DNA of 64,000 nt from Gemmatimonadota bacterium (GCA_041487875.1 JBGPOE010000002.1:8121-72120), one strand, 5' to 3'; shown: positions 47,718-63,808, counted from the stretch's first letter. Numbers and translations are program-made. Notes: generated by a model from the letters alone, not told the origin.

Positions 47718-48251
47718 TCACAAAGTTGGCCGCGCCAGCGGAAACCGTCCCGCGCGGTGCCGCTCGGCTTCCTTCACATAGTGCTCCCAGGTGCTCCGAA
47801 TCCGCGCCGCGAGCGCCGGGTCCACCGCCCGGGCCACCCGGCCCGGTATCCCCATCACCAGCGACCCCGGCGGCACGCGCATCCCCTCCGGTACCACCGC
47901 CCCCGCCGCTACGACGCTTCCGGTCCCGATACGGACCCCATTCAACAGGACACTGCCCATCCCGATCAGGCAGTCGTCCTCGATGGTGCAGCCATGGATG
48001 ATCGCCCGGTGCCCGATGCCCACCCGGGCACCGATCAGGGCGGGCTTGCCCTCATCCACATGCACAATCGTGCCGTCCTGCAGGTTCGTCGCCTCGCCCA
48101 CGACGATCGCGGCCATGTCGCCCCGCAGCACGGCCTGGTACCACACGCTGGCGCGCGGCCCGAGCGTGACGTCGCCCAGGACGGCGGCCGTGGGGGCGAT
48201 GAACGCCGTGGGATCGATGTTGATTACTGTCTCGTCGGCTGGAACGGCCAC
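47718..48251 (-). CDS. Gamma-carbonic-anhydrase-like hexapeptide-repeat protein (YrdA/PaaY family)
   Basis: GTG start giving VAVPADETVINIDPTAFIAPTAAVLGDVTLG. SVWYQAVLRGD and HGCTIEDDCLIGMGS follow. It overlaps the upstream kinase gene by 28 nt. Confidence 0.8.
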   Translation of the reverse strand: MAVPADETVINIDPTAFIAPTAAVLGDVTLGPRASVWYQAVLRGDMAAIVVGEATNLQDGTIVHVDEGKPALIGARVGIGHRAIIHGCTIEDDCLIGMGSVLLNGVRIGTGSVVAAGAVVPEGMRVPPGSLVMGIPGRVARAVDPALAARIRSTWEHYVKEAERHRAGRFPLARPTL

Positions 48252-50074
48252 TGCACCCAGGCGTCGACGGCGTCGCCGTTCTTCTGGGCGGGATTCCAGC
48301 GGATGAGCTTCGCCAAGTCCAGCGCCTGTTGATTGAACGTCTCGACGTTGGACCCCGAGAACACGCGCGCTTCCATCGTCTCGCCGTCCTTGGAGACGTG
48401 CACCAGGAGAATGGCCTGGCGCGGGAAGATCGGCGCGTCGGACGGCACGGGGATGAACGTCGGCGTGAGCGGCACCGGGCGGGCATCCCAGCACATGCTG
48501 TTCTGGTTGTAGGCCGGTCCGTACTGGCCGCAGGGATCGCTGCCGCGCGGCGAATCGTCCGCCTCCTCCATCGCCACGCGCACCGTGGTGGGCAGACCCG
48601 CGACAATGGTGACCGGCCGCTCGAACGTGGCGTAGCCGGGCGCGGTGACGGTGAGTTTGTAGCTGCCGGGCTGCAGCTCGGGCTGCGCGCTGTGCGCCGG
48701 CTGGCCGTTCAAGCTGACGCGGGCCCCCTGCGGCAAGCCCTGGAGGACGAGCTTGCCGGGGGTGCCGGGCGGGAACGTCGGGTGCGTGGCGGTGTCGCGG
48801 GCGGCCGAATCGGCCGCGGTGCTGTCGCCGCCCGCGAGCAGCGCCGAATCGCGCGCCAGCTGCGAGGCGGAATCGGACGCTGGCTTGGCGCCCGACGCCC
48901 CCGCGAACACCCAGCCTTTCTTCATGGCGAAGTAGCCGCCGCCTCCTAAGATCAACGCGACCAGCGCGAGCCACGTGATCACCGCGCCGACCACCGAGTG
49001 CTTGGGGCCCGCCGGGCCGCCGGTGGTGACGCGCGGCAGCGGCGTGGTCGGCGCGGCCGACACGCGCGGGACGCCCGAGAGCGACGGCAGGGCACGGGTC
49101 GCGGCGGTCGAGATCGACATCTGCAGCGGCGTGAACGCCCCGCCCTCCACCGCCGTGACCATCTCGTCCGCCGTTTGGAAGCGATCGTCGGGCGACTTGG
49201 CCATCATCTTGCGCACGACCTGGAACAGCTCGCGCTTGTCGGGCGTGTCGAGCGCCGGCGCGGGCAGGTCCTCCATGATGTGCTTGTAGCCGATGGAGAA
49301 CGAGTCCTCGCCGTCGAACGGCACGCCGCCGGTGAGACATTGGTACGCCACGACGCCCAGCGAATAGAGGTCGCTGCGGCCGTCGAGCGACTGGGCGCGA
49401 GCCTGCTCCGGGCTCATGTAGTGGGGCGTGCCGATGGACATGCCCGTGCCCGTGAGCTTGCCGCCTGAGGCGGCCTTGGCGATGCCGAAGTCGGTGACGA
49501 CGGCCTGGCCGTGCTCGTCGAACATGATGTTGTCGGGCTTGATGTCGCGATGGACGATGCCGCTCTTGTGCGCGTAGCCCAAGGCGCGGCCCACTTGGGA
49601 CAGCACGACGCGGATCTCCCCCGGCGGCAGCGCGCCCCGTCCGGCGAGAATCGCGGACAGCGGTTTGCCGCGCAGGAACTTCATGACGAAGTAAATCACG
49701 CGGCCCGACTTGCCGACGCGGTAGATCGGGATGATGCCCGGGTGCTCGAGCTTGGCCGACGTGCGCGCCTCGCGCTGGAACCGCTCGACGAATTCCTTGT
49801 CGAAGGCGAGCGAGAACGGCAGGACCTTGATCGCGACATCGCGCTCCAGCTGCCGCTCGCGCGCCTTGAACACGATCGCCATGCCGCCGCGGCCCAGCTC
49901 GTCGAGGATGTCGTACTCCTCTTTGAGCTGCTCGCGCACCATGTCGATTTCCGTCATCTCCGGGTTCTGGTCCCGGACGGTGCTGATCGGCGTGGTGGCC
50001 GTCAGGTCCAGGCCGCAGGACCGGCAGAATTTGGCGGGATCGGGGTTCTGGGTGCCGCAGCGGGAGCAGTACAT
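48224..50074 (-). CDS. Ser/Thr protein kinase with an N-terminal zinc ribbon, one TM, and extracytoplasmic PEGA-like and TonB_C-like domains
   Basis: CSRCGTQNPDPAKFCRSCG; kinase motifs GRGGMAIVFKA, HRDIKPDN, DFG; TM ITWLALVALILGGGGYF; YKLTVTAPGYATFERPVTI; C-terminal LLVHVSKDGETMEARVFSGSNVETFNQQALDLAKLIRWNPAQKNG. Confidence 0.88.
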   Translation of the reverse strand: MYCSRCGTQNPDPAKFCRSCGLDLTATTPISTVRDQNPEMTEIDMVREQLKEEYDILDELGRGGMAIVFKARERQLERDVAIKVLPFSLAFDKEFVERFQREARTSAKLEHPGIIPIYRVGKSGRVIYFVMKFLRGKPLSAILAGRGALPPGEIRVVLSQVGRALGYAHKSGIVHRDIKPDNIMFDEHGQAVVTDFGIAKAASGGKLTGTGMSIGTPHYMSPEQARAQSLDGRSDLYSLGVVAYQCLTGGVPFDGEDSFSIGYKHIMEDLPAPALDTPDKRELFQVVRKMMAKSPDDRFQTADEMVTAVEGGAFTPLQMSISTAATRALPSLSGVPRVSAAPTTPLPRVTTGGPAGPKHSVVGAVITWLALVALILGGGGYFAMKKGWVFAGASGAKPASDSASQLARDSALLAGGDSTAADSAARDTATHPTFPPGTPGKLVLQGLPQGARVSLNGQPAHSAQPELQPGSYKLTVTAPGYATFERPVTIVAGLPTTVRVAMEEADDSPRGSDPCGQYGPAYNQNSMCWDARPVPLTPTFIPVPSDAPIFPRQAILLVHVSKDGETMEARVFSGSNVETFNQQALDLAKLIRWNPAQKNGDAVDAWVQWPFQPTRQ

Positions 50075-50132
50075 TCCGGCGTCCGGGAGGGACGCGGAAA
50101 CTTACGGGTCGCAGGCGAGCAGTGTCAACCGA

Positions 50133-52367
50133 CTAGCGCGCCGTGATTTGGAAGCGTTGGGTGCGCGTGATGACGCGCGACCCCGCCGTGACCGTGACGC
50201 TGAGGAGATACCGCCCGCGCGGCGTGTCGCGCAGGTCGATGCCGCGGTGCACGCGGGTGATCGGACCGTCCGCGGGCGCGTCGAACTCGAGCATCACGGG
50301 CGCGCGCCGGCCGCCGAACAGTCCCGTGATCGCCCCGAAGAACGAGCGCCCGCCTTCTCTTTCGAGCCGCACCACCGTGTGCATCGCTGCGCCGCGCTCC
50401 ATGCCGTACACCTCGTAGTACAGCTCCGCGGCGCTGCCCTGGGGGAAGCGCCCCAGCGGGTTGAGCAGCACAGTATCGCCCGCGGCGCTCCAGAAGAGGC
50501 CCGCACCCCGGCGGCCGAGCACCAGATCGCTCGCGGCCACCACGGAGCCGTCCAGCTGCTCGACCGTGACCGAGTCGCCCAGGACCACGTCGCCGCCCGC
50601 GCTGTCGGGGGTGTTTACGAGCAGGCGATAGCGGTAATCGCCGGGCGGCACCGGGACGGCGAGCTGGCCCGTGAGATACGCGTCGCCGCCCAGCGGCTCG
50701 CGAGCGTGGAACAGGCGCGCCGTATCGACCCGCGCGACCAAGCGGTCGGCCGTATCGGAGACGAGCAGCCGGAAATGCAGCGGGTACACCACGCCGTCCC
50801 CGACCACCGCGCGGCCGGCGAGGCGGTCCGCGGGCACCGCGAACACGACGTGCAGCGCCTGGCCCGTGCCGGTGCCGTCGCCCACCACGAAGTCGCGCGT
50901 GACGAGGCCCAGCGAGGCGTCGAAGCGTTGGCGATAGCTGTCGGTGGTGGTGCCGATCGCGATACTGCGCTGACCCGCCCGCCGCTCCTCGGCGAGCGCC
51001 GTGCCCTGCGCCGCCGTGCCGTGGCTGATGCGCATGTACAAGGGCCCGAACAGCTCCCGCGAGGAGTACAGGTCGGACACCGAAGCGAACGTGCCGCTGG
51101 GCGCCACCACACCGCCCGCGAAACCGAACACGTCGACGAGACTCTCCACCAGCTTGTAATCCTGATTGTGCTCACGCGCCACGAAGTGGAACACCAGGTC
51201 GCCCTCGGGCCGCAGGTACAACCAGCTCTCGTTGGGCTCGACCCCCGGCTTCTCGTAAAACGCCCGCCGATCGGGCTCGCCGTGTCGCAGATAGATGACG
51301 CCGCGGTCGTCGAACTCGCGCTGCGCGGTGCGGTAGACGTCGGTGATGTCGTAGTGGCGGTGACGGCTCGGCAAACGGAAATGCTCGCGCACGTAGAACC
51401 AGCGGCGATAGTGCTCGGCCAGCCGCTCACCCGCGTCGCGCGCGTCGGCCGCGTCGCGGCGATCCCAGAACGGCTCCAGCCAGGCGACGCGCCCCGCGCC
51501 GCCCGCGAGCGTGTCGAAGGTGGCGAGATCCGCGGGGGTCGCCAGCCAGCTCACGTCGTCGCGGTACGCGGCCCGCGCTTCGCCGCTCTGCGCCGCGCGC
51601 GCACCCGCGTAGTACCAGCGCGCGCCGTCGGTCGAGCGCCCCGCCTTGTAAGCGGTGCGCGCGAGCTCGAGGTAGCCCACGCCGGAGTCGCCCCCCAACG
51701 CGAGGTATGCCTGAAATCCGACGAGCGCGGAGTCGGCGTCGCCCACCTCCCGCTCCACCCGGCCGCGCATCATCTGCAGCGCGGGCCGGGCCCCCGCGGG
51801 CGATGTGGCGGCCTGACGCACCGCTGCGAGCGCCACGTCGAGCCGCGGGCCGATCCGCTGCGACAGCGCGGTGGTGGCGAGATCGACCGTCGCCTGCGCG
51901 AACGACGGATCGGCCATGGCCGCGCGCGCGAACGCGTTCGCCGCCTTCGACAGATAATCCTTGTGCAGCCACTGCTGCAGATTTTCGACCACGGGGCTCG
52001 GATTCTCCCCCACGGCGAGCTGGGCCGTGCCGAGACCGTACCAGGGATACGGCCAGCCGGGCTGGAGCTCGCTCGCCCACTCGAACTCCCCGGACGCGTC
52101 ATCGAAATGCGACTTGGCATTGCCGACCTCACCCAGGCGGTACGCGATGAACCCGAGCCGCAGGTGCAGCAGCGCGTTGTCGCGATCCACCTTGGCGAGC
52201 GTGATGGTCGCCTGCTCGAGCCGTCGCAGAGCGAACGAGTCGGTGACGCCGCCGAGCGAGTCGCGCAGCTGCTCGATCGCCGCGCGCTCGGCCGGCGCCT
52301 GGGCGGTCAGGCGGGCTGGCGGGCTCGCGGCCAGCAAGACCAAGAAGATCACGGTGGCGGTGCGCAT
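50133..52367 (-). CDS. Secreted TPR plus GWxTD-domain protein
   Basis: Signal peptide MRTATVIFLVLLAASPPARLTAQ. N-terminal TPR-like helices. The GWxTD-family core is FWDRRD...HYRRWFYVREHF...DDRGVIYLRHGEPD...PNESWLY. Confidence 0.65.
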   Translation of the reverse strand: MRTATVIFLVLLAASPPARLTAQAPAERAAIEQLRDSLGGVTDSFALRRLEQATITLAKVDRDNALLHLRLGFIAYRLGEVGNAKSHFDDASGEFEWASELQPGWPYPWYGLGTAQLAVGENPSPVVENLQQWLHKDYLSKAANAFARAAMADPSFAQATVDLATTALSQRIGPRLDVALAAVRQAATSPAGARPALQMMRGRVEREVGDADSALVGFQAYLALGGDSGVGYLELARTAYKAGRSTDGARWYYAGARAAQSGEARAAYRDDVSWLATPADLATFDTLAGGAGRVAWLEPFWDRRDAADARDAGERLAEHYRRWFYVREHFRLPSRHRHYDITDVYRTAQREFDDRGVIYLRHGEPDRRAFYEKPGVEPNESWLYLRPEGDLVFHFVAREHNQDYKLVESLVDVFGFAGGVVAPSGTFASVSDLYSSRELFGPLYMRISHGTAAQGTALAEERRAGQRSIAIGTTTDSYRQRFDASLGLVTRDFVVGDGTGTGQALHVVFAVPADRLAGRAVVGDGVVYPLHFRLLVSDTADRLVARVDTARLFHAREPLGGDAYLTGQLAVPVPPGDYRYRLLVNTPDSAGGDVVLGDSVTVEQLDGSVVAASDLVLGRRGAGLFWSAAGDTVLLNPLGRFPQGSAAELYYEVYGMERGAAMHTVVRLEREGGRSFFGAITGLFGGRRAPVMLEFDAPADGPITRVHRGIDLRDTPRGRYLLSVTVTAGSRVITRTQRFQITAR

Positions 52368-52404
52368 CGCTATTCCATTATACCCGGCCGCCCGCGAGCG
52401 TTCG

Positions 52405-55197
52405 TCAGAAATCCGAGGAGAACCCGAGATACACCTGCAGGCGGCGCGGTCCACCACTCGGCAACGGCGCGAGCGGTTCGGCCACGCCCAGCCGCAGGCG
52501 CAGCGGCAGATCGTAGCTGATCGTCACGTCGCTCACGAGCTCCGCCCCGGCCGACGCGATGTGCGCGAGGCGCGGTCGCGCGCCCGGATCCCAGGCGTCC
52601 CCCGCGTCGCCGAACAGCGAGAGCGAGAACTTGTCCGCACCCAACGGCAAGTGACCCACGCCCTTCCCCACGAGCGCAAGCGGCAGGCGGTACTCGACGC
52701 TCGCGGTGGCGGCGCGCCGGCCACGCAAGGCGCCAGCCCCATACCCGCGCACCGGGAAGGCCCGCGCCGTCCCGACGCTCCGCCCGAAGCCCACGTCGAG
52801 CGCGCCCGACGACACGCCGCCCACGCCGAGCAGCGTCGGCAATGGGCCCGCGGTGGCCCCGGCAGCGAGGCGCAGCGCGAGCACCGAGTGCGCGAACCCA
52901 CCCAGGCCCGGCGCCGGCAGGTACAGACCCAGCCGCCCGCGCGCCTCGTTGGACCACTCGCCTGAACCCTGGCGCTCGCGGCGCCGCACCAGCGCCACCA
53001 GGGAGAAGCCGTTCTGAGCCGATATCGACAGCGGCCCGGCGAACGCGCGCGCCAGCCCGAGGCTCACCGAGCCCCCCACGAGATCGCGATCGGCGCAGCC
53101 GACGCACACGGCGACCAGCGGCGTGTCGGGCTCCGCCACGAAGCGCCGGCCTTCGAATTCCCCCGCCACGCGCAGGCTCACGGCGGTACGCCAGCGCTGC
53201 CGCACGAACGTGGCGCCCACCGCCGCGTCCTGAGTGCGCTCCGACACGCTGGCGACGGCATTCGACCCGATGAACGACCAGTCGCTCGAGGCCGACACGT
53301 CGAGCGTGGGATTCCCCAGGCGTTGATCGATCAGCGTGAAGGCGCCGGCAGCGCGTCGCGTGCCGGGCGCCACCAACGCCTCGAGGACGTAATAGTTGCG
53401 CGCGAGCGCGTCGGAGCCCGCCGTGACGGCGCCCACGAACGTCCCGGCGCCGCTCGTGCTGAGCAACGCCGGCACCCAGAAGTGCGGCCGCAGGGACGGC
53501 CAGGCGCTGTACCCCGTCTCGCGCGCCGGGACGGCGGGCGCCGTGTCGAACGGCGCGGGTGTGGTGCCGGGCTCCGCGGCGGCAGCGAGCGGCGTCGCGC
53601 GGCGCAGCTGCCAGCCGCGCGCGCCGAGCGTGGCGTACAGGATCGTGCCGTCCACGAGCGACGCGGGATGCCGCGCGCCCGCCGGGTCGGCGGTGAGGCG
53701 CACGGCGCCCGAGTCGGTCCAGCGGTATACCTGCGCGAGGCCCGTCGGGTCGGCGACGAAGAGCAGCGCGCCGTCCGCCGTCCACGCCGGATCGGTCACG
53801 ACTCCTGCCCGCTCGAACAGCACGACGCTCGAATCAGGCGCGTGCGCCGGCCAACGCACCAGCGCCCAGTGGCCAGCGGCGTGACGCGAGGCGGCCACCC
53901 AGCGCCCGTCCGGCGACGGCACGATCGCGCCCCAGGTCGTGCCCGGTGGATCGGGCACGCCGGGAAGCGTGGGGCGGTTGTCGCCGGCCCCGATGGCGAC
54001 GGCGGACACTACGCCAGCGGCCGCGTGCGGCTCGGTGAGGCGCGCGTCGTGCGTGGTGCGGCGCCACGCGCCGTCGGGCGTCCAGCGGTAGAGATCCGAG
54101 CGGGCGCGCCAGCGCGACGTGAAGTCGAGCTGCGACACGACGAGCGTGTCGCCCAGCCAATCGGCGCTGGCGAGCGCATTGACGAGGTGGCGCCGCAGCG
54201 GCCGCCCCGTGGCGCCGTCCGCGACCACGAGCGCACGCGGGCCCTTGCCGTCATCCTGCACGAAGGCCACGCGCCGGCCGTCGGGCGACGCCTGTGGATT
54301 GGGCATGGTCCACAAGCCGTCCGCCAGCAGCGCGCCGCGCGGCCCGTCGGGCGGCGGCGCGGCATCGCGCGTGGCGCGGCGCCAGTCGGCGCTCAGGTCC
54401 GCGGTGGCGTCGGCATGACGCAGCTGGCGTCCCACGCGATACGGAATGGTCTGCGCGGCGGTGGCCTCGACGAACCGCGGGATCACCGAGTCGCCGCGCG
54501 CGCGCGCCACGTAGGCAAAGAACCGGCTGCCGTAGGCGTACGGCATCTCGCCGTCGGGCCAGCGCGTGAACAGCAGCGCGTCCCACGGGCGGCGCGACGT
54601 GCCGCCCCCGCGCTCGGCGCCGAGCAGCGCGGTATGATAGCTGCCGGTGACACGCCCGCCCGCGGTGAGGCGCGATTCGTAATAGACCGCGAGTCCCTCG
54701 ATCACCCAGCTCGGCTGATACGCGTTGGGGAACAATCCCGGCGCCCGGCCGAACACCCGCTGCAGCCCGCCCCAGAAGCTCGCGCTCCGGTCCAAATGGA
54801 AGACGTGGGTGAGCTCGTGCGTGATCACCAGACGCAGCCAGTCGTCGTAATGCTGGAGGGCGGGATCGAGGGCGGGGGGCGCCAGCAGCACGACGATGCG
54901 GTTGGACGGGAAGACGCTGGTGAAGCCGTTGGCCGCATCGACGTCGTCGGACAGGGTGAGGTCGATGGTGCCGCGGGGAGCGTGCAGCTCGCGCGCCAGC
55001 AGCCCGTAGGCGCGCTCGGCTTCGCGGGCGGCGTCCCCCGCCACCGCGCGGAGCGCCGGCCGGAAATGGAGGCGGAAGTGTGCGGTGTGCAGCGTGCGCC
55101 AGGGACCCGCAGGGTCCTGGGCGCGGAGCGGCCGGGGGAGCGACGCGACGAGCGCCAGCACCCCGAGCGCGGACGTGATGAGCGTCACCCGTCGCAT
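52405..55197 (-). CDS. Outer-membrane fusion protein: MA-clan zinc metallopeptidase, PD40/TolB-like beta-propeller and C-terminal beta-barrel
   Basis: Signal peptide MRRVTLITSALGVLALVASLPRPLRAQ. HELTH at 54805..54819 with a downstream WVIEGLAVYYE. Repeated SPDGRxVA-type blades. The C-terminal region has alternating hydrophobics and ends LGFSSDF (terminal Phe). Confidence 0.7.
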   Translation of the reverse strand: MRRVTLITSALGVLALVASLPRPLRAQDPAGPWRTLHTAHFRLHFRPALRAVAGDAAREAERAYGLLARELHAPRGTIDLTLSDDVDAANGFTSVFPSNRIVVLLAPPALDPALQHYDDWLRLVITHELTHVFHLDRSASFWGGLQRVFGRAPGLFPNAYQPSWVIEGLAVYYESRLTAGGRVTGSYHTALLGAERGGGTSRRPWDALLFTRWPDGEMPYAYGSRFFAYVARARGDSVIPRFVEATAAQTIPYRVGRQLRHADATADLSADWRRATRDAAPPPDGPRGALLADGLWTMPNPQASPDGRRVAFVQDDGKGPRALVVADGATGRPLRRHLVNALASADWLGDTLVVSQLDFTSRWRARSDLYRWTPDGAWRRTTHDARLTEPHAAAGVVSAVAIGAGDNRPTLPGVPDPPGTTWGAIVPSPDGRWVAASRHAAGHWALVRWPAHAPDSSVVLFERAGVVTDPAWTADGALLFVADPTGLAQVYRWTDSGAVRLTADPAGARHPASLVDGTILYATLGARGWQLRRATPLAAAAEPGTTPAPFDTAPAVPARETGYSAWPSLRPHFWVPALLSTSGAGTFVGAVTAGSDALARNYYVLEALVAPGTRRAAGAFTLIDQRLGNPTLDVSASSDWSFIGSNAVASVSERTQDAAVGATFVRQRWRTAVSLRVAGEFEGRRFVAEPDTPLVAVCVGCADRDLVGGSVSLGLARAFAGPLSISAQNGFSLVALVRRRERQGSGEWSNEARGRLGLYLPAPGLGGFAHSVLALRLAAGATAGPLPTLLGVGGVSSGALDVGFGRSVGTARAFPVRGYGAGALRGRRAATASVEYRLPLALVGKGVGHLPLGADKFSLSLFGDAGDAWDPGARPRLAHIASAGAELVSDVTISYDLPLRLRLGVAEPLAPLPSGGPRRLQVYLGFSSDF

Positions 55198-55289
55198 AGG
55201 CGCGCAAGCTACTGTCTCCCCTTTCGACCCGTCAATTTCACCAATAGATTGGCGTACCTTTACTTGGGCTTCGTGAGGTTCCCCCATTC

Positions 55290-56357
55290 ATGACGACCTG
55301 CCAGTACTGCGGCCGCGCCAATGAACCCGGCGCGCAGTTCTGCATGGATTGTGGCAAGCCGCTCAGCAAGGAAGCGGCAGCCATGAAGAAGGCCGCCGCA
55401 CCGCGCGCGTCGGCCGGCCCGGGCGCGGCCGTGCCCGGCACCCAAGTCCTCTCAGCCCCCGCCGCCGCGCCGACGGACGCCCCCGGGACCGCGCCCTGTC
55501 CGTTTTGCAACGAGCCGGTCAACGGCAACCTGCCCTACTGTCCGCACTGCGGGCGGCGCCTGTCGGCGCCGGGCTCGGGGCCGGCCTGCGCGCGCTGCGG
55601 CTCGCCGGTGACTCCCGGGACCAAGTTCTGCGCCACCTGCGGAGCCACCCTGGGCGACATCGCCGCCCCCGCGCTGCAGCGGCCCTCATCGCAGCCCGCG
55701 CCGCGCACCGATTTTTCGTTCGTGCTGGTCCAGCTCGACGACGCCGGCCAGCCGCGCCAGCGTTTCGAGCGCAAGAGCACCGACACGACCATCGGCCGGC
55801 TCGACGGCGACATCCGCTTCCCCGAAGACCCGTTCCTCTCGCCGCTGCACACCCGCCTGTCGTGGGAAGATCAGCAGCTGGTGGTGCGCGACCTCGGCAG
55901 CCGCAACGGCACCTGGGTCTTCCTCGATGCACCCTACCGGCTGATGGACGGCGACCTGCTGCTCGTCGGCTCGCAGGTGCTGCGGTTCCGCCGGCTCGGC
56001 TATCCCGGGCCGCACGCACCCGAGGCGGACGCCACCAAGCGCATGGGCAGTCTGATCCCGAGCGCCGACATCGCGAGCCTCACGCAGCTGCGCTCCGACG
56101 GCAGCGCGCGCGACGTGATCCATCTCTCGCCCGGCCGCGACGTGCTGATCGGGCGCGAACAGGGGGACTGGCTCTTTCCCTATGATCCCTCGATGAGCGG
56201 CCGGCACGCGCTGATCCGTTCCGAGGACGCCGACTTCGTGGTGCTCGACGCCGGCAGCCGCAACGGCGTCGCCCTCGCCGCGCGGGGCGCGATGCCGCTC
56301 AAGCACCAGTCCAAGCTGCTGGTCGGCGACAAACTCATGCGCCTCGAGCTGCCGTGA
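55290..56357 (+). CDS. Triple zinc-ribbon plus double FHA-domain protein
   Basis: CQYCGRANEPGAQFCMDCG, CPFCNEPVNGNLPYCPHCG and CARCGSPVTPGTKFCATCG. Two FHA cores (TIGRLDGDIRF...SPLHTRL...DLGSRNGT and LIGREQGDWLF...SGRHALI...DAGSRNG). Confidence 0.85.
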   Translation: MTTCQYCGRANEPGAQFCMDCGKPLSKEAAAMKKAAAPRASAGPGAAVPGTQVLSAPAAAPTDAPGTAPCPFCNEPVNGNLPYCPHCGRRLSAPGSGPACARCGSPVTPGTKFCATCGATLGDIAAPALQRPSSQPAPRTDFSFVLVQLDDAGQPRQRFERKSTDTTIGRLDGDIRFPEDPFLSPLHTRLSWEDQQLVVRDLGSRNGTWVFLDAPYRLMDGDLLLVGSQVLRFRRLGYPGPHAPEADATKRMGSLIPSADIASLTQLRSDGSARDVIHLSPGRDVLIGREQGDWLFPYDPSMSGRHALIRSEDADFVVLDAGSRNGVALAARGAMPLKHQSKLLVGDKLMRLELP

Positions 56358-57952
56358 AGCTCTGCCCCGTCTGCTCCACGGAATTTCCGTACGACGTGAA
56401 GTTCTGTCCCAACGACGGCGCTACCCTGCGCTCGGCGTCCCCGATGTCCGATCTCGTGGGCCAGGTGGTGGCCGACCGCTACCACGTCGTGAAGAAGCTG
56501 GGCGAAGGCGGCATGGGGCAGGTCTACCTCGCCGAGCACGTGAAGATGGGGCGGCGCAGCGCCATCAAGGTGATGAACCCGTCGATGGTGCACGACCCCG
56601 ACGCGGTGGCGCGGTTCAACCGCGAGGCATCCAACGCGAGCCGCATCACCCACCCCAACGTCTGCGCCATTTACGATTTCGGCGAAACGCCCGAGGGGCT
56701 GATCTACCTCGCGATGGAATACATCGAGGGCGAGCCGCTGACCGACCTGCTGCACCGCGAGGGGGCGCTCAAGGTGCCGCGCGCCGTGCACATCTTCCGC
56801 CAGGTGGCCGACGCCCTGCAGGCGGCGCACGATCTTGGCATCGTGCACCGCGACCTGAAGCCCGACAACATCATGCTCACCAAGACGCGCGGCGGCGCCG
56901 ACATGGTGAAGGTGGTGGACTTCGGCATTGCCAAGGCCGTAGGGGGCGACGAGTCCGGCCAGAAGGTGACCAAAACCGGCCTCGTGGTGGGGACGCCGGA
57001 GTTCATGAGTCCGGAGCAGCTCTCGGGCGACAAGCTGGACGGCCGCAGCGACTTGTACTCGCTGGCACTGGTGTTCTACAAGATGCTGACGGGGCAGCTG
57101 CCGTTCGAGGCCGACACGGTCCAGGAAACGATGATCAAGCGCCTCACCGACGAGCCCGCCAAGCTCGCCGCGCTGCGGCCGGATCTGCCGTTCCCGCCCG
57201 GCCTGCAGGAGGTGCTCGACAACGCGCTGGCCCGCACGCCGGTGGACCGCTACCAGACGGTCTCGAAGTTCTCGCAGGACGTGGCGAGCGTCACCGGCGT
57301 GAGCACGGCGACCACGGCGGTGCCCGCGACCCGATCGGACGTCACGAGCGACAAGACGCAGCTGCTCGATGCGTCGGCCACGAAAGCGATCCCTGCGAAG
57401 CGGGCCGGCGCCAAGGCGGCGCCCGCCACGCGCGGCGCGGCGTCCGAGAAGAAGCGCTCGCTCGTGCCGATGGTGGGCGGCGTGGTGGCGGTGCTGGCAC
57501 TGGGCGGCGGCGCATGGGCCGTGTTCGGCCACAAGACGCCACCGGCCAACGGCGCGCAGCGCCCGGCCGACACGACCAAACAGGTCACCACAGTGCCCCA
57601 CGACACGAGCAAGACGCAGCACGCGTCGAAACCGCCGAACAACACGACCAATCCCGGTACCTCCGCGACGGCGACGCAACATCGCGTGGACCCGGCGAAG
57701 GCGGCGGACGCGCTCGACGCGCTGACCGATCTGGTCGACCGCGATCCAGCGGCTGCGCGTGACTCAGCCACCGTCTTGTACGAGGCGGCGTCAGTGGCCA
57801 AGACCGACAAGGCCATGGCGGCGTTCGTGATCGCGAACGCGTTCTGGAAGCTCGGCAATCGTCCGCAGGGCTGCACGTGGATTCGGCGCGCCCAAACCCT
57901 CGATCCCGCGACGCCGACGTTCACCACCGTCGCCACGTCGCAGTGCCAATAG
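56354..57952 (+). CDS. Ser/Thr protein kinase with an N-terminal zinc ribbon, one TM and a small helical extracytoplasmic domain
   Basis: GTGA-coupled to the upstream gene. CPVCSTEFPYDVKFCPNDG; GEGGMGQVYLAEH, HRDLKPDN, DFG; TM LVPMVGGVVAVLALGGGAWAVFG. Confidence 0.88.
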   Translation: MKLCPVCSTEFPYDVKFCPNDGATLRSASPMSDLVGQVVADRYHVVKKLGEGGMGQVYLAEHVKMGRRSAIKVMNPSMVHDPDAVARFNREASNASRITHPNVCAIYDFGETPEGLIYLAMEYIEGEPLTDLLHREGALKVPRAVHIFRQVADALQAAHDLGIVHRDLKPDNIMLTKTRGGADMVKVVDFGIAKAVGGDESGQKVTKTGLVVGTPEFMSPEQLSGDKLDGRSDLYSLALVFYKMLTGQLPFEADTVQETMIKRLTDEPAKLAALRPDLPFPPGLQEVLDNALARTPVDRYQTVSKFSQDVASVTGVSTATTAVPATRSDVTSDKTQLLDASATKAIPAKRAGAKAAPATRGAASEKKRSLVPMVGGVVAVLALGGGAWAVFGHKTPPANGAQRPADTTKQVTTVPHDTSKTQHASKPPNNTTNPGTSATATQHRVDPAKAADALDALTDLVDRDPAAARDSATVLYEAASVAKTDKAMAAFVIANAFWKLGNRPQGCTWIRRAQTLDPATPTFTTVATSQCQ

Positions 57953-57954
57953 CC

Positions 57955-58983
57955 ATGTTCGGACGCTCCTCCAACCCCAAGCCCATCCGGGTCCGCGTCT
58001 TCGGCAAGACGGATCTCGGCAAGACGCGCGACCACAACGAGGACTGCTTCCTCGTGGCCGACCTGACGCGCGGCGACGCGTCGCTCCAGCCGACCGTGCG
58101 CGAGCACGAGGTGGGCGAGCGTGGCACCCTGCTGGTCGTGGCGGATGGCATGGGCGGCGCGGCGGCGGGCGAAGTCGCGAGCGACATGGCGACCAAGACG
58201 ATCTACGAGCAATTGATGAAGAGCTGGGGCGCGGAAACGGAGCTCACGGCGCAGCGCTTCGCCGCGCGCCTCAAGGAAGCCGTGGAGACCGCCAACGGCC
58301 ACATCCACGCGTACGCCAAGGCGCACCCCGAAGTCCGCGGCATGGGGACTACCACGACCGCCGTGGGCGTGCTGGCCGATCACCTCTATCTCACGCAGGT
58401 GGGCGACAGCCGCGCGTATCTGGTGCGCGACGGCGTCGCCGTGCAGCTCACCAAGGACCAGTCGCTGATGCAGCGGCTGGTCGAGGCGGGCGAGCTGACC
58501 GAAGAAGAGGCGGCGCAGAGTGAGCGCCGCAACATCATCCTCCAGGCCTTGGGCCCCGATCCCAAAGTGAAGGTCGATCTCACCTTCCAAGATCTGCGCC
58601 GCGGTGACGTGCTGGTGCTCTGCTCCGACGGGCTGTCGGGCCTCGTGAAGAAGGAAGAGATCGCTGGCGTCGCCGGCAAGGAACCGGACCTGGCCGTGGC
58701 CTGCGAGAAGCTGATCGCCCTCGCCAACGACCGCGGCGGCCCGGATAACATCACGGTCGTGATTGCGCGGTTCGAGGGCGACGGCCTGCCCGCCGACACG
58801 CCCGACCCGGCCGGCCACCAGGTCTATCCCTTGATCGACACCGAGACGAGCACGGAGCCCGTGCCGGTCTACAAGGGCAGCAAGGCGCCGGTGCCGGCGC
58901 GGCGCGCGCGCGCCCGCTGGCTCACGGTGCTGCTGCTCGCGGGCGCGGGGGCGGTGGCCCTCTATCTCGCGCTCGTCCGGTGA
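57955..58983 (+). CDS. PP2C-family Ser/Thr phosphatase with a C-terminal TM anchor
   Basis: KTDLGKTRDHNEDCF, VADGMGG, DRGGPDNITVV. The C-terminal helix is WLTVLLLAGAGAVALYLAL. Confidence 0.88.
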   Translation: MFGRSSNPKPIRVRVFGKTDLGKTRDHNEDCFLVADLTRGDASLQPTVREHEVGERGTLLVVADGMGGAAAGEVASDMATKTIYEQLMKSWGAETELTAQRFAARLKEAVETANGHIHAYAKAHPEVRGMGTTTTAVGVLADHLYLTQVGDSRAYLVRDGVAVQLTKDQSLMQRLVEAGELTEEEAAQSERRNIILQALGPDPKVKVDLTFQDLRRGDVLVLCSDGLSGLVKKEEIAGVAGKEPDLAVACEKLIALANDRGGPDNITVVIARFEGDGLPADTPDPAGHQVYPLIDTETSTEPVPVYKGSKAPVPARRARARWLTVLLLAGAGAVALYLALVR

Positions 58984-60371
58984 AGGCGCAGTTCAAGTTC
59001 CTCTCGGGCGCACGCGCCGGTGAAGTCGAAGCCTTCGGCAAGGCGTACATCGGCGTCGGACGGCACCCACTCTCCGACGTCCGCTTCGACGCCGAGCGCG
59101 ATCTCGACGTCTCGTCGCGGCACGCGTCAATCACGCGCGGGGCCGGGGGGTTCGTGCTCAAGGACTTGGGCAGCAAGAACGGCACGTTCGTCAACGGCAA
59201 GCGGGTCGCGGCCGACGTCCTGCTGCGGGACGGCGACATCATCGCCTTCGGCGACAAGGGCCCGGCACTCGAGTTTCACGTAGTCGACGCGGGCGAGGCG
59301 GCGCCTTCCGAGGCCGGCGCCGCCGATCTCGCCCGGCGCTCCTCGGCGCCGCGAGAATCGTTCGCCGCGAGCGCCGCCCCCGCCCCCGCTCCCGTCGCCC
59401 CGCCCCGTCGCTCCAGCACCGCCGTCCGGTTCGCGCAGGAAGTCGCCCACCTCCGCCGCACCACGAAGCTGCTGTTCGGCGCCTTGGTGCTGGCGTTCGC
59501 GCTGTTCGGATTCCTGCAATGGAAGGGCGGACGCGACCGCGCGCACGACCGCGCGCAGTTCCAGAACCAGCTGCAATCGCTCAACGACGCGTTGACGCAG
59601 TCGCGGCAGGAGGTTTCGCGGCTGGATCGCGAGCTCGTCGCGGCGAGCCGCGTGGGGGACGATTCGACCCTGACGCGCCTTCGCGCCGAGCTCGACGCCG
59701 CCGAGCACCGCTATCGCAGCATCGTCGGGGCGGCGGCGGTGGATTATCGCGGCATCAGCCAGAAGAATCAGGACGCCGTGGCGCTGGTGCTGGTGGATTT
59801 CGGTGCCAGCGAGGTATTCAGCGGCACCGCGTTCGCGGTGGACTCGCAGGGGACCTTGGTCACCAACAAGCACGTCCTGGTGGGCGAAGAGGCCGACCGC
59901 ACGCCGCAGCGCATCGCGGTGAAATTCTCTGGCTCCAAGCAGTGGTTCCCAGGCCGCATGGTGGGCGTCTCCAGCAAGTGGGACCTGGGCGTCGTCAAGG
60001 TCGACATCAAGGGGGGCGTGCCGCGCGTCGCCGGGATCGCCCGGGAGGCTCACGCCGTGCAGCGCGGTGATCCCGTCGCCATCATCGGCTTCCCGCTCGG
60101 CGTCGACTTACCGATGGAAGGCGGCCAGGGGGTGAACGCCGTCGCCGATCCCACCCTCACCGCGGGTACGGTGAGCAAAGTGCTCGACAGTCTCGTGCAG
60201 GTGGACGGATACGGCGCGCCCGGCTCTTCGGGCAGCCCGATTTTCGACCGCGACGGCCGCGTCGTGGCGGTCTTGTACGGCGGCAACCGGGAGTCCGGCG
60301 GCAAGATCATCTTCTCGATTCCGGCCTACTTCGTGGTGGATTACCTCAAGTCGCTCAATCTGCTGAAATAG
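58980..60371 (+). CDS. FHA domain, TM, coiled coil and trypsin-like (S1) serine protease fusion
   Basis: GTGA-coupled to the upstream gene. FHA core (GVGRHPLSDVRF...SSRHASI...DLGSKNGTFVNG). TM LLFGALVLAFALFGFL. Protease triad contexts TNKHV, WDLGVVKV and GAPGSSGSPIF. Confidence 0.82.
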   Translation: MKAQFKFLSGARAGEVEAFGKAYIGVGRHPLSDVRFDAERDLDVSSRHASITRGAGGFVLKDLGSKNGTFVNGKRVAADVLLRDGDIIAFGDKGPALEFHVVDAGEAAPSEAGAADLARRSSAPRESFAASAAPAPAPVAPPRRSSTAVRFAQEVAHLRRTTKLLFGALVLAFALFGFLQWKGGRDRAHDRAQFQNQLQSLNDALTQSRQEVSRLDRELVAASRVGDDSTLTRLRAELDAAEHRYRSIVGAAAVDYRGISQKNQDAVALVLVDFGASEVFSGTAFAVDSQGTLVTNKHVLVGEEADRTPQRIAVKFSGSKQWFPGRMVGVSSKWDLGVVKVDIKGGVPRVAGIAREAHAVQRGDPVAIIGFPLGVDLPMEGGQGVNAVADPTLTAGTVSKVLDSLVQVDGYGAPGSSGSPIFDRDGRVVAVLYGGNRESGGKIIFSIPAYFVVDYLKSLNLLK

Positions 60372-61770
60372 CGCGCGCCGCCGCGCGCTGCATGACTCCG
60401 TCTCCTCCCCACGCACACAACACCGGTACGCGCCCCGGGATCTGTGCCGCGAGCCGCGGATGGCCGAACAGCACCACCAGCGCCGCACCGGGCAACCGCC
60501 GCCGCAGCGCGGCGCGTGAACGGGCGCTCAAGTCGGCGTGGCCTTTCCAGGAGAGGGGATTGGCGAAGACGGCGATGATGCGTGTGCCGTTCTCTGTTAT
60601 CCGTCGCCCGCGACTGTGCAGCTCCCCGGCAAATACGTCGCGCGGGCCGACGGTGTAGGGTCCGCCTGCGTCGTCGTCCACCACCGCGACGCGCAGCGCG
60701 GCGCCGAGTTTCGGTTGCTCGCCGCGCACCCACCGTAGCGTCCGTTGCGCCAGCTGATCGGCGAAGAGGGCGTTGGCGGCCAAGTCGACGTCCCTGTCCC
60801 CTGTCCCCCTTCCCCATTCCCCGATTGTCCGCTCGTAACGCGCCAAAGCCTCGTCCGCCCTGGCGGATGAGATCTCCTTCCCGACGGCCGCGTCGAGCGC
60901 AGCGATCACGGCGGCGAAATCTTCGGGATAGAGCAACCCGTCGCAGCCCGCGGCCACCGCCGCGACCGTGGCCGGCGCCTCCGCTTGCGCGGCGGTGGCG
61001 CCACCCATGATCAGTGCGTCCGTCACCACGAACCCGGAGAAGTTGAGCGGGTCGCGCAGGTATCCGAGAATTGTTGGTGAGAACGCCGCGGCCCGGCCGC
61101 TCGAGTCCCAGCCGGGATAGGCGACGTAGGCGGCCATCACGCTGCCCACGCCCGCGCCGATCGCGGATTCGAACGGCCCCAAATCCGTGGCGGCGAGCGC
61201 GGCGAACGGCGTGGCGACGCGCGGCACGGTGGCGTGGGAGTCCTGGATGGTGCGACCGTGCCCCGGATAGTGCTTGGCACAGGCGAGCACGCCGTGCTCC
61301 TGGCAGCCGCGGATCCACACGGCCGCCTGCTCCCCCACCCGCTGTGGGTCCGCGCCGAACGACCGCGTCTGGATGATGGGATTCTCGGGCTCCACGTCGA
61401 GGTCGCATACCGGCGCGAACGCCCAGTTGAGTCCGACGGAGAGCGCTTCGCCCGCCGTGATGAGCGCCGCGGCGTGCGTGGCGTCGAGGTCGTCCAAGGC
61501 ACCGAGGGCCGCGGGTGGCGGCAGCTCGGTGAGTCCGCGGACCTGCTGGCCGGCGCCGCGCTCCAGGTCCGCGCCGATCAGCAAGGGCCGGCCCGCCTGC
61601 GCCCGCAGGTCGGCGGTGAGTGCCGCCACGGCGTGGCGCGTCCCGCCGAACGCAATGAATCCACCGGCGCCCGCCGCGAGCGCGCGGTCGATCTTCTGCC
61701 GCTCGTGCGCAAACGATCCCCGGCGCCACCGCAGCGCTGGGAAGACGAGCCGTGCCAGCGACGTGGTCAC
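60355..61770 (-). CDS. nagZ: Glycoside hydrolase family 3 beta-N-acetylhexosaminidase (NagZ-like) with a C-terminal extension
   Basis: IGADLERGAGQQ, AKHYPGHGRT, FSGFVVTDAL. At 471 aa it is longer than typical NagZ. Confidence 0.8.
   Translation of the reverse strand: MTTSLARLVFPALRWRRGSFAHERQKIDRALAAGAGGFIAFGGTRHAVAALTADLRAQAGRPLLIGADLERGAGQQVRGLTELPPPAALGALDDLDATHAAALITAGEALSVGLNWAFAPVCDLDVEPENPIIQTRSFGADPQRVGEQAAVWIRGCQEHGVLACAKHYPGHGRTIQDSHATVPRVATPFAALAATDLGPFESAIGAGVGSVMAAYVAYPGWDSSGRAAAFSPTILGYLRDPLNFSGFVVTDALIMGGATAAQAEAPATVAAVAAGCDGLLYPEDFAAVIAALDAAVGKEISSARADEALARYERTIGEWGRGTGDRDVDLAANALFADQLAQRTLRWVRGEQPKLGAALRVAVVDDDAGGPYTVGPRDVFAGELHSRGRRITENGTRIIAVFANPLSWKGHADLSARSRAALRRRLPGAALVVLFGHPRLAAQIPGRVPVLCAWGGDGVMQRAAARAISAD
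60791..60825. repeat. Heptamer array inside nagZ (minus-strand reading GGGGAAT GGGGAAG GGGGACA GGGGACA)
   Basis: Read directly. It encodes GEWGRGTGDRD in the NagZ C-terminal extension. Confidence 0.8.
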
Positions 61771-62885
61771 AGCGGCGTGATGCGGCCCAGCACCCGTGGC
61801 CCCCGCGCGCCCGTGGCCGCGGGGAGATTGCCGGGCGAGCCTGCGAGCGTGAGAAGCCCGAGAAACGCGAACGCGACCGCCTCTTTGGCGTCGCCGTCGA
61901 AAAACAGCTGATCGAAGGAGAGCACGGGCCGCGGTCGTACGCGGGCGGCAAGTGCCGTGACGAGCACCGGATTACGCGCGCCGCCGCCCGAGATCACGAG
62001 CTCGGCGTCCGCGGGCGCGGCGGTGAACTGCTCGATCGCCCGGGCGACGGATTCGACCGTGAGCGCCGTGGCCGTCGCCACGGCGTCGTTTGCGGACCCG
62101 CCGCCGGCGCGCACCTGCGCCAGCAGCCGCTCCGCGTACTCAAGGCCGAAGCGCTCCCGACCCGTGCTCTTGGGCGGGCGAGCCGCGAAGTACGGGTCCG
62201 CGAGCAGGACGTCGAGCACCCGTGTCACGGGCCGGCCACGCCGCGCGCGCTCGCCGTCGGTGTCGTACGACGCATCCGGGTCGATCGCCCGCGTCACGGC
62301 GTCGATGATGGCGACACCCGGGCCGGTGTCGAACGCCAGCGCCCCGGCGGTCTCGCCGCGCCGCGGCACCCAGGTCACGTTCGCCATGCCGCCCAGGTTC
62401 AAGAGCAGGCGGCCGCGCTCGGGATGGCCGAACAGCATCACGTCGGCGAGCGGCACGAGCGGCGCGCCCTGCCCGCCCGCCGCCACGTCACGCGCACGGA
62501 AGTCGCTGATCACCCGCACGCCCACCCGTTCGGCAATCACCGCGGGGTCGCCCAGCTGGAGCGTGGCCTTTCCCGGCTCATGCCAGATCGTCTGGCCGTG
62601 CGACGCCACGAACGCGACGGCCGGCGGCGCCGTCTTCGCCTTGGCCAGGAGCTGCAGCACCGCGCCCGCGAAGCGCTCGCCTAAGGCCACGTGCAACAGC
62701 GCCAGATCTTTGGCACCGCCGCGCGCGATCGCCTCGATGATCTGGCCGCGCTCGGCCGCGGCGTAGGGTTCCTGATGGAAGGCGACGAGCCGGGCGGTGG
62801 GGCCCTCACTCAACCGCACCAGCGCCGCCGACACGCCGTCCAGCGACGTGCCGGACATCACGCCGACGGCGAGCGTCTCCGTCAC
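61767..62885 (-). CDS. anmK: Anhydro-N-acetylmuramic acid kinase
   Basis: The GTG start overlaps the murQ stop (GTGA). VGVMSGTSLDGVSAAL, NLGGMANVT, and GGGARNPVL near the C-terminus. Confidence 0.88.
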   Translation of the reverse strand: MTETLAVGVMSGTSLDGVSAALVRLSEGPTARLVAFHQEPYAAAERGQIIEAIARGGAKDLALLHVALGERFAGAVLQLLAKAKTAPPAVAFVASHGQTIWHEPGKATLQLGDPAVIAERVGVRVISDFRARDVAAGGQGAPLVPLADVMLFGHPERGRLLLNLGGMANVTWVPRRGETAGALAFDTGPGVAIIDAVTRAIDPDASYDTDGERARRGRPVTRVLDVLLADPYFAARPPKSTGRERFGLEYAERLLAQVRAGGGSANDAVATATALTVESVARAIEQFTAAPADAELVISGGGARNPVLVTALAARVRPRPVLSFDQLFFDGDAKEAVAFAFLGLLTLAGSPGNLPAATGARGPRVLGRITPL

Positions 62886-63808
62886 CGCTGCACGGGAGGC
62901 GGATCGCCCACGGCGCGGCGCACGAATCCGCCCGCGGCGTCGAGCAGGCGGCGCGCCTCGACACGATCCACGCCGCGGCGCGCCATCACGATGGCGAGTT
63001 TCACCGACCCCGCGGCGGACTCGATCGCGCGGCGGGCGGTGGCGCGATCCACGGCGCAGCACTCCATAACGATGCGCTCGCCGCGGTCCTTCAGTTTGTC
63101 GCTCACCGCCAGGAGGTCTACCATCAGGTTGCCGTAACAGCGGCCCAGACGGATCATCGCGCCGGTGGTGAGTGTGTTGAGGACGAGCTTGGTGGCGGTG
63201 CCCGCCTTCATACGGGTCGAGCCGGTGAGGACTTCGGGGCCCACGAGCGGCACGATCAGGACGTCGCACGTGTCGGCCAGGATCTTGGGCGGCGGGGAGC
63301 AGGACACGAGCCCCGTGGCGGCGCCGAGCGTTTGCGCGCGCCCCAGCGCCGCCCGTACGAACGGCGTGGTGCCGCTCGCGGCAATTCCGATCACGACGTC
63401 TTTCGCCGTGACGCGCTGGGCGTCCATCGCCGCGGCGCCCGCGTTGACATCGTCCTCGGCGCCCTCGGCGCTCTTTACCATGGCCGCATAGCCGCCGGCG
63501 ACGACGCCCACCACCAGCTCCGGCGGCGTGCCGAAGGTAGGCGGGCACTCCGCCGCGTCCAGCACGCCCAGCCGCCCCGACGTGCCGGCGCCCACGTAGA
63601 TCAGCCGCCCGCCACCCTGCAGCCGTGCGACGATGAGATCCACGGCCCGCGCCAAGTCTTCGCGGACGCCGTGCACTACGTCGGGCACGGTTCGATCCTC
63701 GGCGTTGATCGCGTCCACGATCTCGAGGCTCGACGCGACGTCGATGCGCTCGGTGCGCGGATTGCGTTGCTCGGTGAGGCGCGGATCGTGAAAGTCGGGG
63801 GTGCGCAT
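62882..63808 (-). CDS. murQ: N-acetylmuramic acid 6-phosphate etherase
   Basis: LTEQRNPRTERID, GAGTSGRLG, SIS-domain body. Confidence 0.9.
   Translation of the reverse strand: MRTPDFHDPRLTEQRNPRTERIDVASSLEIVDAINAEDRTVPDVVHGVREDLARAVDLIVARLQGGGRLIYVGAGTSGRLGVLDAAECPPTFGTPPELVVGVVAGGYAAMVKSAEGAEDDVNAGAAAMDAQRVTAKDVVIGIAASGTTPFVRAALGRAQTLGAATGLVSCSPPPKILADTCDVLIVPLVGPEVLTGSTRMKAGTATKLVLNTLTTGAMIRLGRCYGNLMVDLLAVSDKLKDRGERIVMECCAVDRATARRAIESAAGSVKLAIVMARRGVDRVEARRLLDAAGGFVRRAVGDPPPVQR

Follow-up and report, generated by a model that had tools for sequence, protein, structure and literature searches.

A three-domain Omp85 protein with a predicted zinc peptidase head and a TolB-like propeller in Gemmatimonadota

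The 64,000-nucleotide stretch of Gemmatimonadota DNA analysed here (GCA_041487875.1, JBGPOE010000002.1:8121-72120; hereafter the window) carries on its minus strand a gene for a 930-amino acid protein that is predicted to join a zinc peptidase-like head and a TolB-like propeller to an Omp85-type outer-membrane barrel. This target gene occupies positions 52405..55197, including the stop codon at 52405-52407, in a region with a G+C content of ~72-74%, and its source bacterium places in the Gemmatimonadales. The corresponding minus-strand open reading frame (ORF) is open for 960 codons (52405..55287). Gene calls in three assemblies and the homologues agree on the ATG at 55197 as the start, which gives the precursor of 930 residues. 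Two co-oriented genes, encoding a tetratricopeptide repeat (TPR) protein with a GWxTD domain and a protein kinase, follow downstream, and a divergent signalling cluster begins upstream.

An initial annotation, made from the sequence alone, had described a single 930-residue protein, and both the gene calls and the full-length homologues bear this out. The identical product was called in three independent assemblies, namely the NCBI metagenome-assembled genome GCA_041498915.1, JGI 3300052991 and Logan SRR29604901. More than 1000 homologues were scored in a word-indexed search. Identity to the target is 55-83% among the top 120, nearly all of which are full-length, and homologue coverage of the 930-amino acid length is 95-100%. 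We also searched 1.84 billion cluster representatives exhaustively with a hidden Markov model (HMM) of the family, which recovered 9110 clusters at a threshold of E<1e-3, of which 1840 also passed E<1e-30, with profile positions ~5-929 covered by most of the top 150 clusters. When one genome per species was scanned, at least 548 species were found to encode a relative. Nearly all of the best 80 matches in that scan span the full length, and nearly all are labelled Gemmatimonadota. At greater distance, an end-to-end alignment was obtained between the target and a protein of the cultured bacterium Desulfurivibrio alkaliphilus (27% identity over 981 columns, E 2e-56).

The domain structure was examined with an AlphaFold2 (AF2) model based on an alignment of 70 close Gemmatimonadales sequences (alignment A1). 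Conservation was scored on a wider set of 118 full-length representatives sharing 28-59% identity with the target (119 aligned sequences; fractions given below refer to this set unless A1 is named). The full-length model has a mean predicted local distance difference test score (pLDDT) of 86.5 and a predicted template modelling score (pTM) of 0.86. It consists of an alpha/beta region at residues 30-280, about 22 beta-strands at 289-534, an unstructured linker at 536-558 and 16 long strands at 570-929. Every Pfam and NCBIfam match of the target protein itself was sub-threshold, and the domains were therefore assigned from profiles, structure prediction and relatives. Family profiles, AF2 with Foldseek, and the Pfam scores of relatives supported all three assignments proposed in the initial annotation (peptidase, propeller and barrel). 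The HMMER searches against PD40, Omp85 and peptidase families that it had suggested gave a divided answer, with the window protein sub-threshold and relatives above the Omp85 cutoff and as high as 84 bits on PD40. On the predicted structure, the target is a secreted three-domain protein made up of a gluzincin-fold HExxH domain, a TolB-like PD40 propeller and a 16-stranded Omp85 barrel.

Residues 1-26, MRRVTLITSALGVLALVASLPRPLRA, which are followed by QDP (55120..55197, minus strand), read as a signal peptide, as the initial annotation had claimed, with the cleavage site placed from the sequence. The AF2 model has a low-confidence helix at residues 2-18 of this segment, and the predicted mature N-terminus (Q-x-DPSG-x-WRT) is conserved in the target family. 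All the motifs that the initial annotation quoted were found in the protein at the positions it gave.

The region following the signal peptide, residues 27-285 (54343..55119, minus strand), was assigned from Foldseek and weak Pfam matches as a metallopeptidase-like domain of gluzincin fold (MA clan). It contains the HExxH zinc-binding/catalytic motif as HELTH at residues 127-131 (H127, E128 and H131; 54805..54819), just where the initial annotation had located it, and a helix (163-177 in the AF2 model) that bears the sequence WVIEGLAVYYE at residues 164-174 (54676..54708) with E167 and E174. H127, E128, H131, E167, E174, R182, Y220 and G223 are kept in all 119 sequences, and G168 and W164 in 118 and 117, respectively; H127, E128 and H131 are also invariant in alignments A1 and A4. 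From the gluzincin pattern, E167 would be the third zinc ligand, as its context W-x-x-E-G-L-A resembles the 'NEGFA' motif that bears this ligand in M1 peptidases. A separate AF2 model of residues 27-285 (pLDDT 78.9, pTM 0.83) was searched with Foldseek. The top match was a cold-active M1 aminopeptidase (3cia, E 9.3e-5, template modelling (TM) score 0.56), accompanied by LTA4 hydrolase, a Deinococcus radiodurans M1 peptidase (6a8z is among the M1 entries matched), IRAP, ERAP1, 2xpz, the M9 collagenases ColT, ColG and ColH (4ar8, 4ar1) and the AM0627 metallopeptidase. Nearly all of the top 50 matches were gluzincins (E 9e-5 to 1e-2, query TM scores 0.38-0.56), and the sole non-gluzincin among the matches listed was a TFIID chain. 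These fold matches and the invariant HExxH...E arrangement, with its His-to-Glu spacing of 35 residues, uphold the gluzincin-like site of the initial annotation.

Weak Pfam matches of 22 diverse N-terminal domains point in the same direction. DUF1570 was matched by 15 of the 22, BSP by 13 (best 1e-6), M61 by 8, YgjP-like by 7 and Peptidase_MA_2 by 4; these are mostly HExxH/zincin-type metallopeptidase families, DUF1570 being without annotated function. Some relatives match Peptidase_MA_2 at E 4e-6, and the window protein itself reaches a sub-threshold 13.9 bits on YgjP-like. Membership of the M1 aminopeptidases was considered and rejected, since the His-to-Glu spacing is 35 residues against 18 in M1 and the GxMEN motif is missing. 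DAANG (residues 87-91) stands in its place in the strand before the HExxH helix, and Pfam Peptidase_M1 gave no match at all to the target or to the 22 N-terminal domains. Family-level HMMs all stayed below threshold for the target and the 22 N-terminal domains alike. On these grounds, together with the spacing and the lack of GxMEN, the head appears from its sequence to be a divergent gluzincin that forms a family of its own, neither M1 nor M9. It is probably an active zinc peptidase, given that the general-base Glu (E128) is kept at such divergence.

The second domain, residues 286-535 (53593..54342, minus strand), was identified as a TolB-like PD40 beta-propeller from the family profile, Foldseek and the DSSP secondary structure assignment. 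Four propeller motifs were located, SPDGRRVAF (304-312), WTPDGAW (372-378), SPDGRWVAAS (428-437) and WTADGALLFV (472-481), which agrees with the PD40-type blades claimed in the initial annotation. The target-family profile matches TolB structures in the Protein Data Bank (PDB) at E 3e-6 over residues 419-555, and Foldseek returned TolB (1c5k, 2w8b and 2hqs) at E ~2.6e-6 over ~240 aligned columns, together with acylaminoacyl peptidase 2hu8. On Pfam PD40, whose cutoff is 20.9 bits, the window protein reaches 17.7 bits; relatives score up to 84 bits and also match Tricorn_N, Tricorn_2nd, DPPIV_N and Peptidase_S9_N. The ~22 predicted strands in 250 residues are consistent with a six-bladed propeller, the blade count being taken from the strand list. 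The target was rejected as an orthologue of TolB, as it reaches 21.3 bits on the NCBIfam TolB equivalog model, whose cutoff is 343 (E 1e-4). A Pro/Ala-rich linker of 23 residues (536-558; 53524..53592), devoid of regular secondary structure at 541-558 in the AF2 model, connects the propeller to the barrel. Pfam and NCBIfam scans gave no match to a POTRA domain, and only this unstructured linker precedes the barrel.

The C-terminal 372 residues (559-930; 52408..53523, minus strand) are predicted by DSSP analysis of the AF2 model and by Foldseek to form an Omp85-type outer-membrane beta-barrel. The strand count, which the initial annotation had left to structure modelling, is 16, with all of the long strands between residues 570 and 929. 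The best Foldseek match in the PDB was D. radiodurans BamA (8xnb, E 4.6e-7, TM score 0.64 on the target), followed by TamA (8us1/8us3), Sam50 and Escherichia coli BamA. The Pfam Omp85 model (PF01103) has a cutoff of 24 bits. The window protein reaches 15.1 bits, the full-length relatives P0497, P0484 and P0453 reach 34.9-38.3 bits in alignments to model positions 8-296 (of 325), and many other relatives carry a precomputed PF01103 match. NCBI gives several relatives the name 'BamA/TamA family outer membrane protein', and the NCBIfam model of Deinococcus BamA matches the target sub-threshold at E 1e-4 over residues 770-887. The strand number, the fold matches to BamA, TamA and Sam50 and the relatives above the Pfam cutoff thus substantiate the Omp85-like barrel of the initial annotation.

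Two motifs are hallmarks of Omp85 proteins such as BamA and FhaC: VRGY/F in loop 6, and (F/G)xDxG in strand 13, which pairs with loop 6. Both were recognised in the target. VRGY is found at residues 816-819 (52741..52752), in the loop at 784-827 between strands 11 and 12, with R817 invariant (119/119) and G818 kept in 118/119. FGDAG lies at residues 862-866 (52600..52614) within the strand at 852-869; in A1, F862 and G866 are invariant and D864 nearly so, and across the wider set 98/119 sequences have G866. E835 and P839 are also invariant (119/119), and R837 is present in 118/119. The protein ends in the beta-signal-like strand YLGFSSDF (923-930; 52408..52431), in which F930 is kept in 109/119 and Y923 in 103/119, so the terminal aromatic residue pointed out in the initial annotation is well conserved. 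As the peptidase and barrel residues are invariant or near-invariant at 28-59% identity, the motif matches are not attributable to chance. The only two cysteines of the target, C698 and C701, occur in the sequence CVGC (698-701; 53095..53106), which is predicted to lie in extracellular loop 4 by a short helix. All 70 close Gemmatimonadales sequences have both, the wider family lacks them, and a lineage-specific loop disulfide may form between the two.

The initial annotation called the architecture unusual, which proved an overstatement. The three-domain design has been on record since 2014 and is widespread. Heinz and Lithgow (2014; Front Microbiol 5:370; PMC4104836) split the Omp85/TpsB superfamily into ten subfamilies, one of which, 'WD40-Omp85', has a TolB-like propeller fused to the barrel. 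Their main text covers only the propeller, and for the peptidase domain the sole record is supplementary: the 'best aminopeptidase hit' column of Table S3 lists 1z5h, 4kxd, 4fgm, 4ar1 and 3qnf for the WD40-like cluster at 98.7-99.4% Phyre2 confidence, next to BamA/TamA and TolB (2w8b, 2ivz) matches at 99.7-100% (PMC4104836). According to a 2024 summary, it has 'divergent WD40 and peptidase domains' (PMC11358297), and Hanson et al. (2024) write that these subfamilies 'have not been well characterized' (PMC11116518). The target matches the WD40-like subfamily in its three parts and in their order, and the structural families found for it by Foldseek are also those of Table S3, with 4ar1 and 3qnf among the entries on both sides. 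The Pfam set given for the subfamily in Table S2 (PF01103, PF07676, PF10647 and PF00930; PMC4104836) is also common to both. The 2014 set differs in having no Gemmatimonadota entry ('gemmatimon' gives 0 matches in the supplements of PMC4104836). On the basis of the architecture and the shared structural and HMM matches, we are fairly confident that the target belongs to this POTRA-less WD40-like/peptidase Omp85 subfamily. Its members number thousands of clusters in several phyla. Searches from distant members found relatives in Longimicrobiales, Desulfurivibrio, Nitrospirota, 'Deltaproteobacteria', Pelobacteraceae, Desulfuromonadaceae, Acidobacteria and Candidatus Schekmanbacteria, and members were also found in Desulfobacterota. 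The labels now in the databases read 'hypothetical protein', 'LpqB family beta-propeller' or 'Tol biopolymer transport system component'.

The genomic neighbourhood was compared by searching six window proteins by tblastn against 83 related loci, and the amidase gene described below was counted in 80 species-representative (GTDB) loci. Downstream of the target, on the same strand, lies the gene for the 744-amino acid TPR/GWxTD protein (50133..52367; TIGR04514, 32.5 bits against a cutoff of 28). Its ATG begins 38 nucleotides after the target stop codon (a 37-nucleotide gap, 52368-52404), so the orientation and spacing reported in the initial annotation are correct. The gene was found in only 32 of the 83 loci, always between the target and the kinase gene, and is therefore a variable insert and not a conserved partner; this weakened it as a candidate functional partner of the target. 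None of the papers in the literature collection searched mentions 'GWxTD'. The 37-nucleotide gap contains GGGTATAATGG, which ends ~12 nucleotides before the GWxTD ATG and is a possible -10 box of that gene's own. A promoter and terminator scan of 47900-55400 gave no match, a result that is uninformative at 72% GC.

The next gene on this strand (48224..50074) specifies a multidomain Ser/Thr kinase (Pkinase 5e-49, TonB_C 1.4e-8, PEGA 1.9e-6). The product has an N-terminal zinc ribbon, a predicted membrane segment, PEGA and a C-terminal TonB_C domain. Of the 83 loci, 78 have the gene, and in most of these it immediately follows the target or the GWxTD gene. Judged from its domains, a TonB_C kinase encoded beside an outer-membrane barrel could be an envelope-spanning sensor. 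On the other side of the target, a divergent signalling cluster occupies 55290-60371 on the plus strand, with overlapping start and stop codons. Its first gene (55290-56357) specifies a protein with a double zinc ribbon and two FHA domains; genes for a Ser/Thr kinase (56354-57952) and a PP2C phosphatase (57877-58983) come next, and a gene for a protein with FHA and trypsin-like protease domains (~58980-60371) is last. This FHA/kinase/PP2C cluster is kept upstream beside the target in most Gemmatimonadales loci.

In most loci, ~2 kb separate the divergent cluster from the target, and this interval holds a gene of ~650 codons for an Amidase_3 protein (for example, L006:3977-5947). The gene encodes a lipoprotein N-acetylmuramoyl-L-alanine amidase that ends in the Amidase_3 domain (Pfam, 109 bits), and it is co-oriented with the target and abuts its start in 59 of the 80 loci; it also abuts orthologues that are only ~30% identical to the target (loci L084 and L091). 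In the window, a remnant of the 5' region of this gene was detected at 55177..55284 (minus strand), where tblastn with the L006 ORF aligned residues 8-43 at 58% identity (E 1.7e-6). The part of the target ORF that extends in frame upstream of the gene thus shows homology to the first ~40 codons of the amidase ORF, which suggests a lineage-specific deletion that kept the 5' region. The same remnant is present in loci L022, L027, L047, L061 and L070.

Genes of peptidoglycan recycling lie further upstream. Gene calls on locus L001 placed genes for a GH3 NagZ-like protein, AnmK and a MurQ-like SIS etherase, then a gamma-glutamyltranspeptidase, at ~60355-63808. MurQ and AnmK genes flank the target in the window and in loci L088, L092 and L093, and GH3 (NagZ-like) in the window and in L084. 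Across Gemmatimonadota, MurQ-like, AnmK and GH3 genes recur upstream and a ribonucleotide reductase gene downstream. Loci L084, L088, L091 and L092 have two conserved genes without a Pfam match between AnmK and the target orthologue, one of ~550-590 codons on the same strand and one of ~220-290 codons on the opposite strand.

We propose that the Omp85 barrel anchors the protein in the outer membrane and that the 23-residue linker joins it to the propeller and then to the peptidase head. Both soluble domains would be tethered in the periplasm beneath the outer membrane, in the manner of POTRA domains and of the patatin domain of PlpD. We consider this periplasmic placement likely by analogy, because the first barrel strand of Omp85 proteins comes after the N-terminal domains and starts on the periplasmic side, and because PlpD provides a precedent. 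The propeller probably acts as a binding platform or a size filter that would let only extended or short peptides reach the active site, as in TolB-like, tricorn and S9 proteins. The most likely job of the protein, as a zinc oligopeptidase, would be cell-envelope maintenance at the interface of outer membrane and peptidoglycan, for example the degradation of peptides released by wall remodelling or division; the amidase gene upstream in most Gemmatimonadota and the MurQ, AnmK and NagZ genes nearby are the grounds for this proposal. Wall-derived peptides or proteins at this interface are the most likely substrates. The assignment of a specific role in degrading peptides there is tentative, with the odds against it. 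A bolder version, which we put forward as speculation, is that the barrel does more than anchor and couples events at the outer membrane to a periplasmic zinc peptidase that acts with the AmiC-type amidase and possibly the TonB_C kinase. The events in question would be septal constriction, stalled beta-barrels or the passage of peptides. If such coupling exists, the splitting or turnover of peptidoglycan would be coordinated with the outer membrane, a function like that of Tol-Pal/NlpD or of BamA plus BepA carried out on a new scaffold in phyla without the proteobacterial parts.

Several observations weigh against a peptidase that is anchored in the outer membrane and takes part in envelope maintenance. 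The window protein falls short of the Pfam gathering score in every peptidase family and also for PD40 and Omp85. Sequence searches of the PDB gave no match covering the peptidase domain: the single target sequence retrieved nothing, the full-length profile retrieved propellers only, and the profile of the N-terminal domain found just a chance 10-bit match to astacin. The amidase gene is missing in the window, where only the 36-residue stretch directly before the target is left, and it is absent from both non-Gemmatimonadota loci examined, the Schekmanbacteria locus and another distant locus (L086 and L090). As these two loci are without it, the linkage to amidase and peptidoglycan-recycling genes, seen only within Gemmatimonadota, could be inherited synteny and not functional coupling, and the peptidoglycan hypothesis stays tentative for this reason.

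Among the other explanations, quality control of outer-membrane proteins survives best, and we regard it as unlikely. The barrel would recognise incoming or stalled beta-barrel substrates in the manner of BamA or TamA, and the propeller-gated zinc peptidase would degrade those that fail to fold, so that a single chain would unite BamA-like recognition with BepA-like proteolysis. VRGY, FGDAG and the 16 strands are kept, the best fold matches are insertases and the catalytic residues are invariant, all of which fit this idea, and BepA, an HExxH protease, works at BAM. Heinz and Lithgow took outer-membrane protein assembly as the conservative default and likened the subfamily to a BamA-BamB fusion (PMC4104836). 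Against these points, the target has no POTRA domain to receive substrates, the barrel motifs are structural and are kept also in PlpD-type enzymes that are not insertases, and no gene for BamD, SurA or Skp was seen in the target neighbourhoods examined.

Type V-like self-export, in which the peptidase and propeller reach the cell surface and serve as an extracellular protease for nutrition or interaction, has a still smaller probability. Many Gemmatimonadota and other soil bacteria secrete peptidases, which speaks for a secreted enzyme. Self-export was also the original model for PlpD and was raised for enzyme-Omp85 fusions by Heinz and Lithgow (PMC4104836), but the enzyme domain of PlpD is exclusively periplasmic (PMC11116518). 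The target moreover has neither a POTRA domain nor a TpsA-like partner, and strand 1, which begins at the periplasmic face, comes directly after ~510 residues of tightly folded propeller and peptidase. The genes nearby serve envelope functions in the periplasm or cytoplasm. We attach an equally low probability to a non-catalytic scaffold, such as a Tol-Pal-like tether between outer membrane and peptidoglycan or an amidase regulator. TolB is a non-enzymatic propeller, the amidase gene adjoins the target gene, and the amidase activators NlpD and EnvC are degenerate metallopeptidases. Such degenerate peptidases lose their catalytic residues, but E128, both His and E167 are kept in 119/119 sequences at 28-59% identity. 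The weakest alternative, an assembly or frameshift artefact that joined two or three separate genes, has a vanishingly small chance of being correct, since nothing was found in its favour apart from the high GC (~73%) that makes long spurious ORFs common, and it is ruled out by the same ORF in three independent assemblies, by hundreds of end-to-end orthologues (down to 27% identity and including that of cultured D. alkaliphilus) and by the pTM of 0.86 for the entire chain, so that the gene-fusion artefact named in the initial annotation does not apply.

A predicted zinc peptidase held beneath the outer membrane by its own barrel is thus the reading we prefer. Omp85 proteins are best known for inserting or translocating outer-membrane proteins, and enzyme-bearing subfamilies without POTRA domains show reuse of the scaffold for other jobs. 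PlpD represents the only enzyme-bearing subfamily studied experimentally, and the result overturned the accepted model. The subfamily considered here is large (9110 clusters) and its zinc site is strictly conserved. What is new in the present analysis is the strict family-wide conservation of the catalytic and barrel motifs and, in Gemmatimonadota, the amidase and peptidoglycan-recycling context. The amidase gene usually just upstream in that phylum, apparently in one operon with the target, and the MurQ/AnmK/NagZ surroundings provide a testable lead on the role of the subfamily. The immediate gain is mainly a correct annotation.

The individual parts of the target can be compared with several known systems. 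With gluzincins (M1, LTA4 hydrolase, M9, Peptidase_MA_2 and BSP), the head shares an HExxH helix followed by a Glu-bearing 'xEGxA' helix and a catalytic-domain fold (TM ~0.5-0.56). It differs from M1 enzymes in the His-to-Glu spacing (35 residues against 18) and in that their GxMEN exopeptidase motif was not recognised in the target. The propeller resembles that of TolB by profile (E 3e-6) and fold (E 2.6e-6), but TolB is a soluble periplasmic protein with an N-terminal alpha/beta domain of its own. A propeller also stands beside a peptidase domain in tricorn protease and in the S9 enzymes prolyl oligopeptidase, DPP IV and acylaminoacyl peptidase; these are soluble serine peptidases, whereas the target is predicted to be membrane-anchored, with a zinc gluzincin N-terminal to the propeller. 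The 16-stranded barrel, VRGY, (F/G)xDxG and the C-terminal aromatic residue are common to the target and to BamA, TamA and Sam50, from which it differs by having no POTRA domain; the sequence similarity is weak (15.1 bits), and an insertase function is not implied. A further parallel is PlpD, the patatin-like Omp85 protein of Pseudomonas aeruginosa. PlpD is a lipase with one POTRA domain that forms a homodimer, whereas the target has a zinc peptidase-like head, a propeller and no POTRA domain. In both proteins the enzyme domain is N-terminal to the Omp85 barrel. That of PlpD was shown by experiment to be exclusively periplasmic, contrary to an earlier secretion model (PMC11116518), and PlpD thereby demonstrates that the Omp85 scaffold can be reused as an enzyme anchor.

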